From: Alphaproteobacteria bacterium
GTDB lineage: Bacteria; Pseudomonadota; Alphaproteobacteria; SP197
Length of the DNA stretch: 64,000 nucleotides
Reading direction: 5' to 3'
NCBI GenBank assembly: GCA_964291265.2
Contig: OZ219747.1
Location: forward strand, 4,128,001 to 4,192,000
The notes beneath the pieces are model-generated. The model saw only the letters and a list, made by a program, of their open reading frames with translations, was not told the origin of the DNA and searched no databases. The position numbers were made by a program, and so were the translations under genes. How positions within the stretch are numbered: position 1 is the stretch's first letter; each line of letters starts with the position of its first letter. This document shows, piece after piece, positions 15,953 through 47,454 of this stretch.

Positions 15953-16263
15953 AACGCGGCGAATGCGCTTCCCGCGCGTTGCAGGCGGCCCCGGCACAAG
16001 AGTAAGGCCGGCACGGATCGATCCGGCCTGCGGAACGGCGTCGAACGGGCCTCGGTGCCAATGCACCGACAACTCCGCCACGTCTCCGGTCTTCCCCTTG
16101 CCCACAAATTTCGCTCCAAGACCCCGCGCCACAAGCCGGGAGCGCGCCGCCTGACGGCGCAACAGGACAGCTCTGCTCGAACACTCGAAAAAGCGTGCCC
16201 GGTGAGCCCTGATGCACCGGAAGCGGCCATTGAAACCGACACCAGTGAACCCGGGGCGCCTCA

Positions 16264-16306
16264 ACATTGAGAGTCATCTGGGGGGCGGAGCGCTGATGAA
16301 GCGCAA
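16264..16306 (+). pseudogene. 43-bp fragment of a Dam-like methyltransferase gene (IESHLGGGALMKR)
   Basis: Near-identical to 46628-46666 of the methyltransferase relic. Confidence 0.6.
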
Positions 16307-16794
16307 CATGGGCGGCAGCGGCCTCGTCCGATCCGGGTCGCCGACACGATCGACAGCGCGCTGTCAGCAGGCAGAGTGCCGGGGGGGGGTGCGCGGTGGT
16401 CTCGCCGACACAGCGCCAGCCGGCCGCCAGGAAGCAACTGCCCCGATACTCCGGTACGACAAAGATCAAGGGCCAGAACCGGACGGATGCCATAGGCCGG
16501 CGCGAAGTCCCCACCTAAGCGCCGGGCCACCATGCTGATGTCGGGGTTTCGCGGTGTTCTCGCCCAAGATGCCATCCCGGCGCACCACAGCAACTCGTTG
16601 CCGATACCGGCTCATCTTCACGCAGACGGACGACTGTCGGCGGCGATTTAGAACGGCGGGATATTGGCGGAGAACCGCTCTTTTGGGCGCTGATCGTGTG
16701 AGTGGGTGACCACGACAGGAGAACGTGCGGCATTGGACGAAGGTCCGCCCGGTCTTTGTTTTCTGCCTATTGTTGGATCCCATTGGTCTTGCAT

Positions 16795-17125
16795 TGACGT
16801 TGACGATGTCGTTCCGGTCGGCGTTCTGGCGTTCGGCGTTTGTGGAACGTGATGTGGGAGGGGAGCTTCAGGCTTTTGCGCGTGGTTTCGTTCTGGCGTT
16901 CTCCGTCCTCGTCGTGGTTCGTCGGGCGGGACGATCTCGAGGCTGGAGAGCTGACGGTTTCTGTTGCGCTGGGCGAAGAGGCTGCGTGCGTTGCGGTTGC
17001 GGCGGCGCAGGGTGCGGCAGGCGTCGAGTGTTTTCGGGCGGATGCTGCGACCTGTGAGCCAGTCCGGCGGCGGATCGGGCGTTGCTGCGGCTCAGCGGCT
17101 GCGGCAGTCTCGTGATGTGGTGTCG
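16795..17125 (-). pseudogene. Diverged, internally deleted paralog of the Toprim gene (second copy about 19232-19565)
   Basis: Blocks such as gtggaacgtgatgtgggaggggagcttca and cgatctcgaggctggagagctga align by eye to the intact Toprim gene. Confidence 0.7.
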
Positions 17126-17751
17126 TTTGGACGGCCCGGGGGTTTCCCGGGGAGGCTGAGAGGCGCGTCGGGGTGAGACGTTCTCATTCCTGGATGGTAA
17201 CGCGTGACCGCGTTCAAGGGTCTTGCGAGATTACGTGTCCCTTCCGTAGCCGCGTGGCGGTTCGATGTCCTCGAGGGCCTCGATGTCGGCATCGGCGACG
17301 ATCTGCAGGCGTTCTCCGTAAGGCGTGTCACGGAGGGTTTCGGGGATGCTGTCGAGGCGGTCACGCCATTCGTCCTGCAGGGTGCGGCAGGCGTCGAGTG
17401 TTTTCGGGCGGATGCTGCGACCTGTGAGCCAGTCCGCGTTGGATCGGGCGTCGCTGCGGCTCAGAGGCTGCGGCAGTCTCGTGATGCGGTGTCGTTTGGA
17501 CGGTCCGGGTGTTTCCCGGGGAAGCTGAGAGGCGCGTCGGGATGAGACGTTCTCATTCCTGGATGGTAACGCGTGACCGCGTTCAAGGGTCTTGCGGGAT
17601 CACGTATCCCTTCCGTAGCCGCGTGGCGGTTCGATGTCCTCGAGGGCCTCGATGTCGGCATCGGCGACGCTCTGCAGGCGTTCTCCGTAAGGCGTGTCAC
17701 GGAGGCTTTCGGGGATGCTGTCGAGGCGGTCACGCCATTCGTCCTGCAGGG
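17007..17751. repeat. Nested tandem repeat of about 370 bp (also about 19446-20167)
   Basis: Units start at GCAGGGTGCGGCAGG (17007, 17377) and contain a Toprim relic, a hairpin spacer and the 3' half of the small ORF. Confidence 0.85.
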
Positions 17752-17890
17752 AGCGCAGTTCGGCCACGGCGTCGTTCCAGCGTTGCGGTCGCGAGCGCCG
17801 GTCACGGTGCTTTGGGGTGTGGACGGGAGGGATGCCGGCCTTGCGCCGTTCCCGGTATCGCCGCTGCTTTTCGGCGGGCGTGAGGGGCAT
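17600..17890 (-). CDS. Small conserved hypothetical protein, 96 aa (copy 1)
   Basis: MPLTPAEKQRRYRERRKAG..RSRPQRWNDAVAEL..IEPPRGYGRD with an AAGGAG RBS. Confidence 0.75.
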   Translation of the reverse strand: MPLTPAEKQRRYRERRKAGIPPVHTPKHRDRRSRPQRWNDAVAELRSLQDEWRDRLDSIPESLRDTPYGERLQSVADADIEALEDIEPPRGYGRDT

Positions 17891-17916
17891 GAGTGGTCTC
17901 CTTGTGACGGACGTGG

Positions 17917-18810
17917 TCATGATCTCGCTTGTGGTTCTTTGGTCCTGGCGTTGACGACGTCGTTCCAGTCGGCGTTTTCCGGCGGTCTGCGTCTGTGGAA
18001 CGAGACGTGGGAGGGGAGCTTCATCTTTTTGCGCAGGGTTTCGGCCTGTCGCTCTCCGGCCTCGTCGTGGTCCTGGGCGAGGACGATGGTCCTGACGTTG
18101 GGCAGGCTGCTTGCGGCGAGGCTGATCTGTTCGTGCTGTCTTCGCGAGGGTGCCCCGGCGGTGGAGAGGAAGGCGTGGCTGGGGGGACATTGGTCGATCT
18201 GGGCCAGGCTGAGGGCGTCGACGGCGCTTTCGGTGATGACGAGGGCCTCGAGGTCCGCGGCGGTTCCGGCGCGGACGGCGAACAGGCTTCGGGTTCCACC
18301 GGTGGCGAAGCGTTTCGGTCCGTCGGGGGGACCGATCTCGAAGCCGGTGAGCTTTCGCTTCCTGTTGCGATGGGCGAAGAGGACGCGTCCGTTGTGGTCG
18401 CGGCGGACCAGGGGGCGGCAGGTGTCGAGGGTCTCCGGGAGGATGCCGCGCCCGGTGAGCCAGTCCGGGGCCGCATCGGGCGTTGCCGCGGCCCAGAGGC
18501 TGCGGAAGTCGCGTGGCGCGGTGTCGGGTGCTGTGAAGCGGGTGCAGATGTCGGCGAAGGCCAGTCCGCGGTTGAGCATGAAGTCGATGACGGTTCCGTT
18601 GTCTTCATCGTTCTGGGTGTTGAAGTAGACCCAGTGTCCGTTGTTGAGGCACTTCGTGACGAGCTTCGGCAGGCCGGGTGCGCACAGGACGGGGTTGGCG
18701 CGTGTCGAGGCCTGTTCGTCGCGGACGTATCCCCAGTCGGCGGCGATGCGTTCGAACGGCATGCGCTTGACGGCGTCGAAGTCGACGCGGCGGGGTTTAT
18801 CGGGTTTCAC
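17917..18810 (-). CDS. DUF3991/Toprim primase-like protein (copy 1)
   Basis: DNGTVIDF, WLTGRGI, ITESAVDALS, AQDHDEAG and DWNDV motifs. Confidence 0.78.
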   Translation of the reverse strand: MKPDKPRRVDFDAVKRMPFERIAADWGYVRDEQASTRANPVLCAPGLPKLVTKCLNNGHWVYFNTQNDEDNGTVIDFMLNRGLAFADICTRFTAPDTAPRDFRSLWAAATPDAAPDWLTGRGILPETLDTCRPLVRRDHNGRVLFAHRNRKRKLTGFEIGPPDGPKRFATGGTRSLFAVRAGTAADLEALVITESAVDALSLAQIDQCPPSHAFLSTAGAPSRRQHEQISLAASSLPNVRTIVLAQDHDEAGERQAETLRKKMKLPSHVSFHRRRPPENADWNDVVNARTKEPQARS

Positions 18811-19071
18811 GCCTGAGCCGCCAGGAGTCGCTGTCGATGGAGATGAGGGTTGCGTCGTGCATGAGCCGGTCGACGGTGCCGGCGATGCCGGAGGCGCTGG
18901 GGAAGACGCGGTCCCACTGGGCGAAGGCGAGGCTTGTCGTGACCATGGTCGAGCGGCGCTGATAGCGCCGCGAGACGATGGCGTAGAGGATGTCGGCATG
19001 GTGGCTTTCGAGGGTCACGTAGCCGATTTCGTCGAGGATGAGCAGGCGGGGCCTGGCGAGGATCGCGAGGC
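18797..19071 (-). pseudogene. istB: 3' fragment of istB in the duplicated arm
   Basis: Matches 21213-21487; truncated by the IR at 19072. Confidence 0.85.
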
Positions 19072-20015
19072 TGTCGGCGGCGATTTAGAACGGCGGGATA
19101 TTGGCGGAGAACCGCTCTTTTGGGCGCTGATCGTGTGAGTGGGTGACCACGACAGGAGAACGTGCGGCATTGGACGAAGGTCCGCCCGGTCTTTGTTTTC
19201 TGCCTATTGTTGGATCCCATTGGTCTTGCATTGACGTTGACGATGTCGTTCCGGTCGGCGTTTTCTGGCGTTCGGCGTTTGTGGAACGTGATGTGGGAGG
19301 GGAGCTTCAGGCTTTTGCGCGTGGTTTCGTTCTGGCGTTCTCCGGCCTCGTCGTGGTTCGTCGGGCGGGACGATCTCGAGGCTGGAGAGCTGACGGTTTC
19401 TGTTGCGCTGGGCGAAGAGGCTGCGTGCGTTGCGGTTGCGGCGGCGCAGGGTGCGGCAGGCGTCGAGTGTTTTCGGGCGGATGCTGCGACCTGTGAGCCA
19501 GTCCGGCGGCGGATCGGGCGTTGCTGCGGCTCAGCGGCTGCGGCAGTCTCGTGATGTGGTGTCGTTTGGACGGCCCGGGGGTTTCCCGGGGAGGCTGAGA
19601 GGCGCGTCGGGGTGAGACGTTCTCATTCCTGGATGGTAACGCGTGACCGCGTTCAAGGGTCTTGCGAGATTACGTGTCCCTTCCGTAGCCGCGTGGCGGT
19701 TCGATGTCCTCGAGAGCCTCGATGTCGGCATCGGCGACGCTCTGCAGGCGTTCTCCGTAAGGCGTGTCACGGAGGGTTTCGGGGATGCTGTCGAGGCGGT
19801 CACGCCATTCGTCCTGCAGGGTGCGGCAGGCGTCGAGTGTTTTCGGGCGGATGCTGCGACCTGTAAGCCAGTCCGGCCAGCGGCTGCGGCAGTCTCGTGA
19901 TGCGGTGTCGTTTGGACGGCCCGGGAGTTTCCCGGGGAGGCTGAGCGGCGCGTCGGGGTGAGACGTTCTCATTCCTGGATGGTAACGCGTGACCGCGTTC
20001 AAGGGTCTTGCGGGA

Positions 20016-20306
20016 TCACGTATCCCTTCCGTAGCCGCGTGGCGGTTCGATGTCCTCGAGGGCCTCGATGTCGGCATCGGCGACGCTCTGCAGGCGTTCT
20101 CCGTAAGGCGTGTCACGGAGGCTTTCGGGGATGCTGTCGAGGTGGTCACGCCATTCGTCCTGCAGGGCGCGCAGTTCGGCCACGGCGTCGTTCCAGCGTT
20201 GCGGTCGCGAGCGCCGGTCACGGTGCTTTGGGGTGTGGACGGGAGGGATGCCGGCCTTGCGCCGTTCCCGGTATCGCCGCTGCTTTTCGGCGGGCGTGAG
20301 GGGCAT
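20016..20306 (-). CDS. Small conserved hypothetical protein, 96 aa (copy 2)
   Basis: As copy 1, with two amino-acid differences (S/A, R/H). Confidence 0.75.
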   Translation of the reverse strand: MPLTPAEKQRRYRERRKAGIPPVHTPKHRDRRSRPQRWNDAVAELRALQDEWRDHLDSIPESLRDTPYGERLQSVADADIEALEDIEPPRGYGRDT

Positions 20307-20332
20307 GAGTGGTCTCCTTGTGACGGACGTGG

Positions 20333-21226
20333 TCATGATCTCGCTTGTGGTTCTTTGGTCCTGGCGTTGACGACGTCGTTCCAGTCGGCGTTTTCCGGCG
20401 GTCTGCGTCTGTGGAACGAGACGTGGGAGGGGAGCTTCATCTTTTTGCGCAGGGTTTCGGCCTGTCGCTCTCCGGCCTCGTCGTGGTCCTGGGCGAGGAC
20501 GATGGTCCTGACGTTGGGCAGGCTGCTTGCGGCGAGGCTGATCTGTTCGTGCTGTCTTCGCGAGGGTGCCCCGGCGGTGGAGAGGAAGGCGTGGCTGGGG
20601 GGACATTGGTCGATCTGGGCCAGGCTGAGGGCGTCGACGGCGCTTTCGGTGATGACGAGGGCCTCGAGGTCCGCGGCGGTTCCGGCGCGGACGGCGAACA
20701 GGCTTCGGGTTCCACCGGTGGCGAAGCGTTTCGGTCCGTCGGGGGGACCGATCTCGAAGCCGGTGAGCTTTCGCTTCCTGTTGCGATGGGCGAAGAGGAC
20801 GCGTCCGTTGTGGTCGCGGCGGACCAGGGGGCGGCAGGTGTCGAGGGTCTCCGGGAGGATGCCGCGCCCGGTGAGCCAGTCCGGGGCCGCATCGGGCGTT
20901 GCCGCGGCCCAGAGGCTGCGGAAGTCGCGTGGCGCGGTGTCGGGTGCTGTGAAGCGGGTGCAGATGTCGGCGAAGGCCAGTCCGCGGTTGAGCATGAAGT
21001 CGATGACGGTTCCGTTGTCTTCATCGTTCTGGGTGTTGAAGTAGACCCAGTGTCCGTTGTTGAGGCACTTCGTGACGAGCTTCGGCAGGCCGGGTGCGCA
21101 CAGGACGGGGTTGGCGCGTGTCGAGGCCTGTTCGTCGCGGACGTATCCCCAGTCGGCGGCGATGCGTTCGAACGGCATGCGCTTGACGGCGTCGAAGTCG
21201 ACGCGGCGGGGTTTATCGGGTTTCAC
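20333..21226 (-). CDS. DUF3991/Toprim primase-like protein (copy 2)
   Basis: Toprim E..D and DxD motifs; GTG start overlaps the end of istB. Confidence 0.78.
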   Translation of the reverse strand: MKPDKPRRVDFDAVKRMPFERIAADWGYVRDEQASTRANPVLCAPGLPKLVTKCLNNGHWVYFNTQNDEDNGTVIDFMLNRGLAFADICTRFTAPDTAPRDFRSLWAAATPDAAPDWLTGRGILPETLDTCRPLVRRDHNGRVLFAHRNRKRKLTGFEIGPPDGPKRFATGGTRSLFAVRAGTAADLEALVITESAVDALSLAQIDQCPPSHAFLSTAGAPSRRQHEQISLAASSLPNVRTIVLAQDHDEAGERQAETLRKKMKLPSHVSFHRRRPPENADWNDVVNARTKEPQARS

Positions 21227-21914
21227 GCCTGAGCCGCCAGGAGTCGCTGTCGATGGAGATGAGGGTTGCGTCGTGCATGAGCCGGTCGACGGTGCCGGCG
21301 ATGCCGGAGGCGCTGGGGAAGACGCGGTCCCACTGGGCGAAGGCGAGGCTTGTCGTGACCATGGTCGAGCGGCGCTGATAGCGCCGCGAGACGATGGCGT
21401 AGAGGATGTCGGCATGGTGGCTTTCGAGGGTCACGTAGCCGATTTCGTCGAGGATGAGCAGGCGGGGCCTGGCGAGGATCGCGAGGCGGCGGCGCAGCTC
21501 GCTGCGCGAGACGGTCTCGGCGAGTGCCTCGAGCAGTTCCGGCGCCTTCTCGAAGCGGACGGTGTGGCCGTGCAGCAGGGCCTGGTGCGCCACGTTGGCG
21601 GCGATCATGGTCTTTCCGGTGCCCTGCCCGCCGACGAGCACGGCGTTGTCCGCACGGTCGACGAAGCCGAGGCCGAGGAGCGCTTCGACATGAGCCCGGC
21701 TGATGTCGCGCGGCCATGTCCAGTCGAAGTCCGCCAGGGGCTTGAAGGCGGGCAGCCGCGCCGCGGCGCGGCGGCGCTCGTGGCTGCGGGCCCTGCGGGC
21801 CTGTTCCTCGCCGCTGACCACCTCCTCGATCCATGCGGTCCCGGCGACCTCGTCCCAGCGTTCGACGAGCCCGTGGAGGCCGAGCGCCCGGGCACGCTCC
21901 CTGAGCTCGCTCAT
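21213..21914 (-). CDS. istB: IS21 helper ATPase IstB
   Basis: KPLADFDW, Walker A GGQGTGKT, Walker B LILDEIGY and DRLMH motifs. Confidence 0.95.
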   Translation of the reverse strand: MSELRERARALGLHGLVERWDEVAGTAWIEEVVSGEEQARRARSHERRRAAARLPAFKPLADFDWTWPRDISRAHVEALLGLGFVDRADNAVLVGGQGTGKTMIAANVAHQALLHGHTVRFEKAPELLEALAETVSRSELRRRLAILARPRLLILDEIGYVTLESHHADILYAIVSRRYQRRSTMVTTSLAFAQWDRVFPSASGIAGTVDRLMHDATLISIDSDSWRLRRETR

Positions 21915-23404
21915 GTCTTGTTCCTGGCGCTGGCTTCGGGCCTGTCGTAGGCGTCGAGAGCGGTCCCCCGCGGCGTCGTGCCACGGCCGCCGCGGCCGTC
22001 GTCGGCGATGCTGAGGGGCGGCAGGCCCTGCTCCCGGCGGCGCTCCTCGATGATGACGCGCACGGTTTCGGGGTGGCACGAGCCGCGCTCCAGCGCCGTG
22101 GCGACAGCCCGGTCGAGAGCGTCGGCGCCGTGCGCGTTGAGAAGCGTCTCCAGCATCCGGGCGCAGGAGGCCACGTTGCGCCCGTTGGTCCCGGCGCGCG
22201 CCAGCATCTCCTCGGCCCGCGGCACGGTGCGCAGGACCCGGTCGCGGACGCTCATGGAGCGGGCCCGCCGCTTGCCCGCGGCGATCGCCCTGGCATGCTC
22301 CGGATCGGTGACGGCCTGCTTCCTGTTGTAGGAGCGTCGGTGGCGCGCGACCTCGTCGGCGCCGTCGAGGATGCGAACCTCGTCGCGGTCGGCGACCAGC
22401 GTCAGCAGGGCCTTGGAGAAGCTACCCGGAACGCTGTAGTCGTTGGTGTCGAAGCGGGCGTGGCAGGTCTTGTCGATGCGCACCGGGCGGACCTCGTGAT
22501 GCGGGAAGGGATCGGCGGGAAGGACGATCAGGTGCTCCCTCTCCCGGGCGAAGGCGTCCCGCACCAGGAGACTGTCGTCGTCCGGCCAGGGCCGCTCCGC
22601 GGCGGCGCCGAAGCACCACTCCCGAACTGCGGCGTTGAGCTCGCCGAGCGGGACCGTGATGTCGCGCCCGGCGAAGAACCCGGTGCGCGCGAAGCGCACA
22701 CGGCGTTCCACGCGGCCCTTCTCCTGCGGGCTCCTGGGCCAGGCGGCGCTCGGTTCGAAGGCATAGTGGGCCGCGAGGCCGAGCAGCATCGGATGATAGG
22801 TGACCGCCTTGCCGCGGCGCGTCACCACGGCACTCTTCAGGTTGTCGTACAGAAGCCTCCGCGGCACACCCCCGAATGCCGCGAAAGCCTCGACATGGCC
22901 TTGCAGGAAGCTGGCCATCCGCGCGTCGTGGAACAGGCTCAGGACAGTCTGGCGCGAGTAGCTGAGGGTGACGAGAAGCCCCATGAGCCTGCGCTCCGCC
23001 CGGCCGATGCGGACCTTCCCGAACTCGGCCCAGTCAACCTGCGCCTGCTCGCCCGGAAGGAAGCTCAGCCGCAGCGACGGCTCGGGCCTCTTCACCGGCC
23101 TCAGCCCAAGGCGGCGCAGGTCGTGACGGAAGTGATCCTCGCCGCCGCGGTAGCCCAGAGCCACGACCTGTCGCCAGAGCGTGCTGGCCGGAAGGTCCGG
23201 CGACGCCTCAAGACGCTCCCCGAGGAAGGCAACGAAGGGGTCGATGAGCTTGGCCCGCGGCCGCCGCTCCTGCCCCGACGCCTTGAGCGCCCGCGTCACC
23301 GTGCCGTGGTGCACGCCGAGATGCCGGGCAATCGTCCCCACAGCCCAGCCCTCGGCCCGCGACAGCCGCACGATCGTCGCCCGCGTGTCCTCGTCGATCG
23401 CCAT
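21911..23404 (-). CDS. istA: IS21 DDE transposase IstA
   Basis: N-terminal HTH; PGEQAQVDW, LYDNLK, KGRVE (DDE triad) and NDYSVP motifs. Confidence 0.95.
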   Translation of the reverse strand: MAIDEDTRATIVRLSRAEGWAVGTIARHLGVHHGTVTRALKASGQERRPRAKLIDPFVAFLGERLEASPDLPASTLWRQVVALGYRGGEDHFRHDLRRLGLRPVKRPEPSLRLSFLPGEQAQVDWAEFGKVRIGRAERRLMGLLVTLSYSRQTVLSLFHDARMASFLQGHVEAFAAFGGVPRRLLYDNLKSAVVTRRGKAVTYHPMLLGLAAHYAFEPSAAWPRSPQEKGRVERRVRFARTGFFAGRDITVPLGELNAAVREWCFGAAAERPWPDDDSLLVRDAFAREREHLIVLPADPFPHHEVRPVRIDKTCHARFDTNDYSVPGSFSKALLTLVADRDEVRILDGADEVARHRRSYNRKQAVTDPEHARAIAAGKRRARSMSVRDRVLRTVPRAEEMLARAGTNGRNVASCARMLETLLNAHGADALDRAVATALERGSCHPETVRVIIEERRREQGLPPLSIADDGRGGRGTTPRGTALDAYDRPEASARNKT

Positions 23405-23436
23405 GAACTCCCTCCCTTTGGTTCCTCAACGCCGCA

Positions 23437-23967
23437 TCACGGGTCCCTCAGCACCACATGCGTCACGACCCGTCCGCATCTGGCGCACCGAAGCGGCGAT
23501 TCGCGCCGCTCTTGCGCCTTCACAACCGCAGGTAGGGAGGTCGGCAGCAGTCGGGAAGGGTGGTCCGTAACGATTTCTTCAGAACCGGCGTCTCCAGACA
23601 CCGCCGGAACGTCGCCAAGCAGCACCACAGCAGACGTCTGCGTGCCCATGATCTCGGCAACCATCGCCGCCCTGGCCTTCAACGCACGCGCCTCCTCCGC
23701 CTTGCGGAGCCGGTAACGCCGCTGGCGGTGACGGCCCGTCTCACGGCCCTTCAGCGTGCTCTGGTAGCGACGACGCGACGCGCGGCGCCGCTCGATCCGG
23801 GACCGCTCCCTGCACTCCTTGGAGCAATACACATGCCCCCGGTCACACGACCGGCAGAGAACAACCTGCCGCTGACACCGCCTGCAGTTGAACAGTCGTC
23901 CTGTCGTGCACACCGTCCGTCTCGAGAGCGGGGGTGGACCCGGACGCAAAATGGCTCGACAATACAC
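23437..23967 (-). CDS. Cys-rich, basic hypothetical protein upstream of istA (putative Zn finger)
   Basis: CRRC..CRSCDRGHVYCSKEC followed by an Arg-rich helix and a C-terminal CARC; start codon uncertain. Confidence 0.6.
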   Translation of the reverse strand: MYCRAILRPGPPPLSRRTVCTTGRLFNCRRCQRQVVLCRSCDRGHVYCSKECRERSRIERRRASRRRYQSTLKGRETGRHRQRRYRLRKAEEARALKARAAMVAEIMGTQTSAVVLLGDVPAVSGDAGSEEIVTDHPSRLLPTSLPAVVKAQERRESPLRCARCGRVVTHVVLRDP

Positions 23968-24231
23968 GGGAGTTCGGTCCCCCGTGACCGGCTCGTCCGG
24001 GTGCTGCGCCGGGGGGCGTCACAACTCCGCCCGGCATCGCATCGCTCTTTCTCTTGATGCCGATCTAGCATCCACCCGGGGCGGCGGCAAAGACGCCGCC
24101 CCGGGACCGGACAACGCGACCCGCCCACAGGGAAGACAAACAATCCCGCGAGTGCCTCGGAACCGGAACCCTCCCGGCAACCGTCACCAAGACCGAAGCA
24201 GAGGTCGACGGAACCCGAACCGGACCAAAAC

Positions 24232-24323
24232 GACAATAGGAAAAGACGGCGGCGCTCGGGGAGACAACCAGCCGAACACTCAAACCACGACAACAGGACG
24301 TGACAATAGGACCTGACAACAGG
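24232..24323 (+). repeat. Subterminal GACAAYAGG repeats
   Basis: Copies at 24232, 24289, 24302 and 24315; the last three have a 13-bp period. Confidence 0.7.
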
Positions 24324-24512
24324 GAAGAAACACGACCCTGACAAAGCGCGGCAAATCGCCGAAATCCCGCCGTTCTATGCAGCCATCAACAACGACACCG
24401 CCCGGCGCCCGTGCACCCAGGTCTTCATGCGCCCCTCACCTTCACGCAGGCGGACGACACCCTGGCGGGGGCGGCGGTGGAGACTTCGGGCGGCGGGCCG
24501 TGGCGGCCCTTC

Positions 24513-25659: not shown

Positions 25660-26560
25660 CATCAGGCGGCAAGGGTCTGTCCCTCCCGGAGTTTGCTGAC
25701 CTCGTGGTCGAGCGAGTGGAGGATGCGTCCGAGCCTGGATGGCACCTTGTCATCGAAGGCCGCCGCCAGGGCAGGGCTGAGTGTCCGCCGATGGATGCGG
25801 CAACAGGCAGGAGCGGTCCCCTGCCCGGCGCACGTCAGACGACAGCGATGGGATGACGGTATCCTCTCGATGAGGCCCCGCAGGCGCAGGCGCCGCAGAT
25901 CATGGGTGGCCTGACGTGAGCCATAGGTGTCGGTCGACAGGAGGTCGGCAACGGCCTTGTCTCATCTGGCGATTGTTGAAGCCCATGGGGAGGAAGACAT
26001 GCAACAGGATGGCTGCGAGCACCGCCTGGATGCGTGGATCACCGAAGCGCAGGGCGGATACCCGACGTTCGTCGACGACGACAGGTTGATGCAGGGCATC
26101 GAAGGTGGCTGCTCCGATCGGACAGTCGTGACTGATGCGTTGGACGTCGAGAAGACGTCGGGTGGCGTGGAAGCCGACCTCCTTGAGGTCATCGAGGTTG
26201 ATCAGTCTGCGCTTGATGCCGAAGTCATACGTGTTGTTGATCACCTTCTGCGTTCGCAGGGCACGGCCTTCCTTGAAGGACTGCTTGATACGCGAATGCC
26301 TGTCATCCACATGCAGCGACGGCTGTACGCCGTCGGTGATGACGCGGATTCTGAACCGCGAGGTGGCCCGCCGTGTGATACGGCGGTTGAAGATCAACTG
26401 CACAGGGTCGGGACGGCCGATGTCGAGGTTCTGGCGCATGATCTCCTCGAACAGGATCCGGCCGTGAAGAGGACGGTCAAACACCTGTGTGAGCGCACAC
26501 TCCGCCTGGAGGATCGACAGGTCGTCGCGCATGCCCCTCATCGCGTCCTCATCGGTGAAG
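25660..26560 (-). pseudogene. Relic of an uncharacterised mobile-element protein with a C-terminal wHTH
   Basis: LTQVFDRP..NLDIGRPD..IKQSFKEGRALRT..ALRFGDPR, then after a frameshift DLRRLRLRGLIERIPSSHR; 5' part missing. Confidence 0.6.
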
Positions 26561-26751
26561 GGATTCTCAAGGACCTCGCCAGCGGACGTGCCATCGTCAT
26601 CTTCCGGACTCCGAACGACGGGTTCCCACATGGTGACCACAAACCATCCCAGCCCTCGGGCTGTATCGGGCGGATCACACTGCAGAGCGGAACAGCGGGC
26701 TCAAGTCCTCTTCCTCCCGCGACGTCTCTCGTCGGTCCGAGGCATGGCCCA

Positions 26752-46551: not shown

Positions 46552-47454
46552 TTGGGGTACTTCGGATCGAAGGCAACGCCGGGTTTGTGCCAGGCGCTGA
46601 TTGCGCTGATGCCGCCGCACTCTGTCTACATTGAGAGCCATCTTGGGGGCGGAGCGCTGATGAAGCCCAGACCACAGGGAAAACAGACGATCCCGCGAGT
46701 GCCTCGGAACCGAAACCCTCCCGGCAACCGTCACCAAGACCGAAGCAGAGGCCGACGGAACAACCCGAACCGGACCAAAACGACAATAGGAAAAGACGGG
46801 CGGCGCTCGGTGAGACAATCAACCGAACACTGAACCCACGACAACAGGACGTGACAATAGGACCTGACAACAGGGAAGAAACACGACCCTGACAAAGCGC
46901 GGCAAATCGCCGAAATCCCGCCGTTCTATGCAGCCATCAACAGCGCAAGCCTGCGTCTGTGCGCTCGATCGGGTGTTGACCGTGATGAGCGTGCGCTTGT
47001 GGGCCTTTGAGTGCGACTATCCGGTGGAGTTGGTGCACGACTGTGCTCACTCCTTCCTGGCTTCGTTACCGTTTCTGGGCGTTCGTCGCAGCGCTACCGC
47101 TTCGAGTACGAGGAGGCGGACCATGTTGCGCTCCTTGGACTACTCAAGGGCCTGCCCTGCTGTTGATGGTCTCGGGCCACCCGTGAAGCGCTCTATGACG
47201 ATCTTCTGGCGGGCTGGCGCCGGGTGGCGCTGCAGGTGACGACCCAGGCCCAGGTGCGGACCGAGGTGGTATGGTTCAACTTTGCCCCCGACCGGGTGCA
47301 CTGGTCGCGCTACGCGGGGCGGAACTTCACCGCACGCCAGTGCATCAAGCGCAAGGCGGCCAACTGGGGGCGGCGCTACGAGGCCATGCCGCCGGGGGAA
47401 CGTCTGGCCGTGCTGGCGGCGATCATGGCCGTCGAGGCCGGGGAGGGTTCGTGA
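46552..47454 (+). pseudogene. Dam-like (D12 class) DNA adenine methyltransferase, disrupted
   Basis: GYFGSK..LMPPHSVYIESHLGGGALMK | insertion | RKPA..FECDYPVELVH..RYRFEYEEADHV..RTEVVWFNF; frameshifts present and no DPPY segment found. Confidence 0.8.
46672..46942 (-). mobile_element. Solo left end of the IS21 transposon
   Basis: Near-identical to about 24125-24391 and ending in the same ...GCAGCCATCAACA terminus. Confidence 0.9.

Follow-up and report, generated by a model that had tools for sequence, protein, structure and literature searches.

Elements of the IS21 family, among them IS21 and IS5376, are described as encoding a DDE transposase (istA) and an AAA+ ATPase (istB) between TG..CA ends, with a 5-bp insertion site and little target specificity (PMC10122671, PMC11208146). 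A copy-out/paste-in route has been proposed for the family (PMC11208146; 10.1101/2023.06.07.543989), and PMC7780238 describes how replication turns a single-strand-bridged figure-eight into a double-stranded circle. The priming and replication of the strand-transfer intermediate in copy-out or replicative transposons are poorly resolved and have been credited to host enzymes. The circle step of IS911 reportedly needs host DnaG. Here we describe an IS21-family element with a primase-like gene of its own. It occupies 19072..24391 (5320 bp, minus strand, TG..CA ends) of a 64,000-nucleotide stretch of an alphaproteobacterial genome (assembly GCA_964291265.2, contig OZ219747.1, positions 4,128,001 to 4,192,000), referred to below as the window; its limits were set by copy boundaries and flanking duplications. 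The gene pair, the ends, the 5-bp insertion site and the low target specificity are those of the family, but the element is 5.3 kb long, has a Cys-rich open reading frame (ORF) upstream and retains the primase-like gene, whereas its close plasmid relatives have only an ORF of 63-73 aa in that place. We propose, with a probability that we put at roughly 0.45, that this multicopy transposon uses a captured plasmid primase to prime the single-stranded DNA (ssDNA) of a copy-out step, where the protein would be a helpful but non-essential factor.

The primase-like protein shares its domain family and motifs with the Toprim primases of conjugative elements (RP4 TraC1, R64 SogL) and with MobV relaxase-primase fusions (pAES1); its family matched the C-terminus of the pAES1 MobV with an HHalign probability of 99. 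According to PMC5512222, Toprim_2/3/4 domains serve conjugative elements as active primases on the transferred ssDNA, and they invariably belong to elements that have systems resembling type IV secretion systems (T4SS). In contrast, the gene in the window stands alone in an insertion sequence without a transfer system. IEE PrimPol likewise links a primase with copy-out/paste-in insertion sequences, on which it acts; unlike the protein here, it is described as a helicase fusion with an AEP fold whose gene lies outside the insertion sequence and which promotes excision (10.1101/2023.06.07.543989). Tn6049 of Cupriavidus metallidurans CH34 is a 3.5-kb element in 12 copies with a GspA-like ATPase (PMC2864759, PMC4739549), and a primase is mentioned in neither of these two papers (0 occurrences). 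The window element itself belongs to IS21 and is not Tn6049-like. Casposons and self-synthesizing transposons encode their own replication enzyme, a family B polymerase, and use a different integrase; the element described here cannot be self-synthesizing, because Pfam and NCBIfam scans found no DNA polymerase among its ORFs.

The primase-like gene travels within a multicopy IS21 element

The right end (IRR, 19072..19120, plus strand) and the left end (IRL, 24343..24391, minus strand, with the terminal TG and a subterminal repeat) were defined by copy boundaries and by a 35-nt inverted repeat, 77% identical, at 19086-19120 and 24343-24377. A preliminary description of this DNA had reported five co-oriented ORFs between TG..CA ends, with an intact DDE triad in IstA and Walker A and B motifs in IstB; all of these were found, the five ORFs being on the minus strand. 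The transposase gene istA (21911..23404, 497 aa) matches NCBIfam NF033546 at 223 bits (cut-off 160) and encodes the triad D124/D187/E233. Overlapping it by 4 nt, istB (21213..21914, 233 aa) encodes an AAA+ ATPase that matches PF01695 (E 4e-50) and scores 191 bits against NF038214, just under the cut-off of 200, with Walker A at G95-T102 and Walker B at D156/E157. The DUF3991/Toprim primase-like gene (20333..21226, 297 aa) begins, as first described, inside the end of istB: its GTG start is at 21226, and the final 14 nt of istB are shared. In all eight relatives read, the primase gene starts either before the istB stop or directly at it. An IstB-primase frameshift fusion was considered and rejected, as no evidence for one was found and the junctions vary (overlaps of 4, 11 or 14 nt, or abutting genes).

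The 4.83-Mb genome of origin contains 30 uninterrupted full copies of 98.1-100% identity by BLAST, besides interrupted and partial ones, and by the same searches the element makes up 4.1% of that genome; full istB genes number 37, plus one fragment. Target-site duplications (TSDs) of 5 bp flank 22 of 32 examined copies, with 6 bp in four, 7 bp in one and none in five. Since the full-length copies and their flanking duplications include the primase gene, this gene travels within the ends of the element. ORF1, istA and istB are intact in 31 of 31 copies, the primase gene in 30 and ORF5 in 28, the remaining three having a stop codon in ORF5.

The protein has the fold of a primase

The Toprim gene had been called primase-like at the outset, and structure prediction agrees. 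Its AlphaFold (AF2) model (pLDDT 91) found its best Foldseek matches in DnaG, T7 gp4 primase and Twinkle, and the family profile matched T7 primase (E 8.5e-10) with the catalytic Glu and the DxD aligned; the fold is that of a primase, not of a topoisomerase or an OLD nuclease. The ORF matched Toprim_2 at E 5e-13 and DUF3991 at E 8e-4, the latter below the family cut-off. An alignment of 39 homologues shows no variation at six residues, E194, D247, D249, D281, N283 and D284, and a C-terminal Asp motif reads D281-W-N-D284. On this model the gene product has a T7-gp4/DnaG primase fold with its catalytic acidic residues intact, and primase activity is predicted.

The gene is conserved with istA and istB and likely came from conjugative plasmids

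Homologues were taken from the best 80 of 260 genome matches (76 loci) and the best 80 of 420 metagenome matches. Among these, 67 loci had at least 50% identity and came from 21 genomes, 20 of them titled Alphaproteobacteria. istB lay directly upstream of the primase gene in 62 of the 67 (18 of the 21 genomes), and the other five were 5′-truncated matches. Multicopy relatives are 4.0-4.7 kb long with TG..CA ends, and most pairs have short duplications; the elements have a patchy distribution across unrelated Alphaproteobacteria, and broken primase copies occur among them.

Across 25-50% protein divergence, purifying selection acts on the primase as it does on istA. Nei-Gojobori estimates of the ratio of nonsynonymous to synonymous substitution (dN/dS) in 13 element variants, likely inflated by high GC content, had medians of 0.44 for the primase, 0.44 for istA and 0.37 for istB. 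In the listed pairs, the ratio for the primase was 0.19-0.44 in eight of nine and 0 in the ninth, with istA at 0.27-0.37 in those eight. Primase distances track those of istA (rho 0.74) and istB (rho 0.76), and 0 of 2000 permutations gave values as high. The istA-istB-Toprim combination is thus no one-off, a possibility that the preliminary description had allowed for, and the comparison of IstA with the Toprim protein that it had called for indicates co-inheritance.

At the 89 more distant loci (28-40% identity), many of which are on short contigs, none had a match to istA, istB or an ExeA-type ATPase. Recognisable neighbours, from a scan of 67 cluster representatives out of 355 ORFs, include T4SS coupling proteins, TrbI, relaxases, RepA_C, ParA, TopoIII and integrases, and relatives of the primase also form the C-terminal domain of MobV relaxases. 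Because the distant relatives sit in the contexts of conjugative plasmids or integrative and conjugative elements (ICEs) and at the C-termini of MobV relaxases, the gene was likely captured from conjugative plasmids, as judged from these sequence relationships.

Three further transposon types carry a related primase

We found three further primase-bearing transposon types in these alphaproteobacteria. Type 2 (4.0 kb, TG..CA ends) comprises a Cys-rich ORF, an rve transposase, an ExeA-type AAA_22 ATPase and the primase; it is present in 15 copies in genome G005 and also in G002, G009, G010, G013, G701, G703, G704 and G707. Type 3 (5.16 kb) adds to a type-2-like core an AAA_25 helicase-family gene (E 5e-36) directly upstream of the primase. 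Six copies are in the window's own genome, for example at G000:C2:460796-465956 (L232), and a 5-bp TSD was seen in 5 of 5 checked; G699 has the type as well, and G010 has related forms. A helicase-primase pair thus sits inside a DDE transposon. Type 4 is a separate IS21 clade (3.4-3.5 kb, IstB about 30% identical) in which the primase gene lies within the ends but reversed, facing istB (L341:3747-7170 in G699, L343 in G704 and L345:6018-9536 in G703). The ATPase of types 2 and 3 is unlike IstB, with about 30% or no detectable identity, and by gene make-up, unaligned, these two types are likely of the same backbone kind as Tn6049 (DUF6431-like ORF, DDE transposase, ExeA/GspA-type ATPase). Types 2-4 are new here, and the window element is a genuine member of IS21 whose retained gene is unusual; no account of an IS21 or Tn6049-like element that bears a primase turned up in the literature searched, outside ISfinder, TnCentral, subscription journals and supplements.

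These types bear on two earlier proposals. The overlap of the primase gene with istB had been read as a sign that the Toprim protein belongs to the mobility machinery; specific work with IstB through this overlap is not supported, given the reversed gene of the second IS21 clade and the ExeA-type partner in the two Tn6049-like types. The description had further raised the idea of IstB as a DnaC-like loader which, together with the primase, might maintain an excised circle as a replicating episome. IstB is described as a close paralogue of DnaC/I (PMC11208146), and a helicase-plus-primase version does exist, but the established role of IstB in that source is target-DNA bending and IstA activation, the primase pairs with ExeA-type ATPases too, and the element has neither origin nor partition genes. 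We regard such an episome as highly improbable, and maintenance of an excised circle found no support.

A tree of 34 primase rows, built from a quick search with plasmid rows picked as nearest matches to each transposon clade, placed the window's clade with primases of conjugative plasmids and ICEs; the primases of types 2-4 are interleaved and fall with primases fused to MobV relaxases (SH-aLRT 100). A first primase tree had no root placed and left out three rows with stops. In the 34-row tree a single clade of all transposon primases was rejected by the approximately unbiased test (p-AU 6.3e-5), which suggests two or more captures with later exchange between three transposon backbones. No plasmid match to the AAA_25 helicase was found at 1e-30, and the type-3 primase matched none of 400 other genomes of a phylum sample at 1e-15, with few candidates scored per genome. 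Repeated capture and exchange are difficult to square with a passenger that has no role in mobility and is kept by hitch-hiking or for a benefit to the host or an unrelated one, as is purifying selection equal to that on istA. Such a passenger would fit the proliferation of primase-less families in the same genomes, the acquisition of other passengers such as ORF5 and the broken primase copies of relatives; on balance we find it rather improbable.

Primase-less relatives and other observations against a priming role

Several observations weigh against the proposed role in priming, and some lie in the protein itself. Its N-terminal domain lacks conserved zinc-binding Cys residues in the alignment, as do the plasmid relatives; the lysine of the GFEIK motif seen in the distant clade is replaced in the window's clade; and Asn replaces the second motif-IV Asp in 15 of 35 close homologues. 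These losses would suit a non-catalytic adaptor that binds ssDNA or forks and steers target choice. The gene sits behind the AAA+ gene, the position of TniQ or TnsE in Tn7, and IS21 has, according to PMC10293859, no reported target selector. However, unlike Tn7-like elements with a target selector, the window element has no Pfam or NCBIfam match to TniQ, TnsD or TnsE among its ORFs, its copies show no replichore orientation bias (15/35 co-oriented, p 0.5), no target consensus is evident among the TSDs, and the principal acidic metal-binding residues do not vary. We consider an adaptor quite improbable.

Further observations against priming come from transposons that lack the gene. A type-4 derivative in G703 with the primase mostly deleted, and with IstA and IstB 97% identical to those of its primase-bearing parent, has 7 copies against 2 for the parent, and a perfect 7-bp TSD of its own flanks both copies checked. 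This derivative moved on its own, and the primase is not needed in cis; other primase copies exist in G703 and could act on it in trans. IS21 families without a primase are present in up to 15 copies (G699) and 8 copies (G701). In G005, 4 copies exist of a Tn6049-like element (L355:1492-5795) that has the AAA_25 helicase gene and lacks the primase. All five plasmid IS21 relatives that were opened (IstA 42-47%) have the 63-73 aa ORF in the primase slot, and all three opened Tn6049-like plasmid relatives have a small ORF in the 63-74 aa range there. The preliminary description had suggested the Toprim protein as part of the mobility machinery: its conservation, co-inheritance and selection favour this, but, given the primase-less relatives and the 7-copy derivative, the view of it as a necessary part is not supported.

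The slot ORF (63-74 aa) lies right after the ATPase gene in L196-L200 and L337-L339, and most of these ORFs end in an acidic or Pro-Phe tail.

Dispensability for moves within a genome would also be expected if the primase served horizontal spread, priming ssDNA that enters or leaves the cell when a plasmid or chromosomal segment bearing the element is transferred by conjugation. Plasmid transfer is the ancestral context of the family, the reversed gene in the second IS21 clade shows no need for co-expression with istAB, and patchy sharing among unrelated Alphaproteobacteria agrees with such a use. Yet the element itself carries neither a T4SS gene nor a relaxase gene (Pfam and NCBIfam scans of its ORFs gave no relaxase; an oriT was not searched for), and most opened DUF3991 loci of host genomes lie in DDE-plus-AAA+ elements (IstB, an ExeA-type ATPase or a helicase neighbours the gene at 46 of 51), which a generic benefit in conjugation would not predict. 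We think this use unlikely, if still deserving of attention.

A model for priming in copy-out transposition

If the primase acts in a copy-out step, as we propose, IstA would form either a single-strand bridge or a branched intermediate like that of Mu, after which replication would displace one strand and the element's primase would prime the complementary strand in place of the host primosome. The primase probably acts in trans, so that primase-less copies could still move. By analogy, second-strand priming on transferred ssDNA, the ancestral job of this primase, fits copy-out replication, and the helicase-plus-primase version fits it better. More tentatively, and with doubt outweighing confidence, we suggest a previously undescribed class of 'self-priming' DDE/AAA+ transposons, in which IS21 and Tn6049-like elements of these alphaproteobacteria would have repeatedly recruited plasmid primases, and within a single lineage a helicase-primase pair, and would carry out the replicative step of transposition without the host primosome. 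The natural occurrence of one backbone with and without a primase makes the priming step directly testable, and the primase-bearing elements may show whether IS21 really uses copy-out/paste-in. If true, the model would provide a route to host-independent, high-copy transposition.

Accompanying genes and the compound locus

The Cys-rich ORF1 (23437..23913, minus strand, 158-176 aa, start uncertain) belongs to no Pfam family and has homologues upstream of istA in the primase-less relatives L196-L200. ORF5 (20016..20306, minus strand, 96 aa, recognised by sequence reading) has AAGGAG 7 nt ahead of its ATG, the strong ribosome-binding site first described. Atlas searches with ORF1 and ORF5 gave matches to hypothetical proteins only. 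In loci L016-L084, ORF5 is next to the primase in just one other genome, and its homologues are also found on unrelated elements; ORF5 is an accessory passenger. A homologue (78%) is carried as a passenger by an IS110-family element of 1975 bp at G000:C2:2591488-2593462 (L233) and three more copies, another adjoins a serine recombinase at L242, and the primase-deleted type-4 derivative carries one as well (L349, L350). The 944 bp downstream of ORF5 (19072..20015, minus strand) form a non-coding tail in which the primase gene and ORF5 recur as decayed duplicates of 81-97% identity. A sigma-70 promoter scan gave 0 sites; a junction promoter, with a -35 box in IRR and a -10 box in IRL, seemed possible by eye and was rejected, as it is not conserved in the ends of relatives. 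No end-to-end joint of IRR and IRL was present among the contigs listed from three public runs, although contigs drop rare forms.

The locus in the window is compound. The 3′ half of a second copy (16635..19071, minus strand: end of istB, primase, ORF5, tail and right end), 98.4% identical to 19071-21494, adjoins the full element, and the TSD ACGAC (16630..16634 and 24392..24396, plus strand) brackets 16635..24391, not 19072..24391. The empty site, with a single ACGAC, is present in contigs of two public runs (X2, X3). Because the TSD flanks 16635..24391, the simplest history is likely that one copy inserted into the istB of another and the repeated 5′ part was then lost. The joint 19071/19072 is unbridged among the contigs listed, and the half-copy rests on the assembly, the sequence differences and the TSD.

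Five nested self-insertions are present in the genome, and self-nested copies at G000:C2:295923-308929, 4058043-4075257 and 4237410-4248078 suggest that target immunity is weak or absent. Copies lie within multicopy DNA in 14 of 31 cases, against about 20% of random genome sites, an excess that selection against disrupted genes can account for. Elsewhere in the window, a left-end remnant of the element (270 bp, 94.8% identical) stands isolated at 46672-46942, and a 45-bp repeat beside it recurs at 16261-16305. A sequence of about 155 bp at 16110-16265, found with 85-89% identity at several genomic sites, is possibly a miniature inverted-repeat transposable element or an element resembling repetitive extragenic palindromic sequences. 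Finally, at 25900-26640, between sugar ABC transporter genes, an ORF resembles, by reading, a broken transposase remnant.

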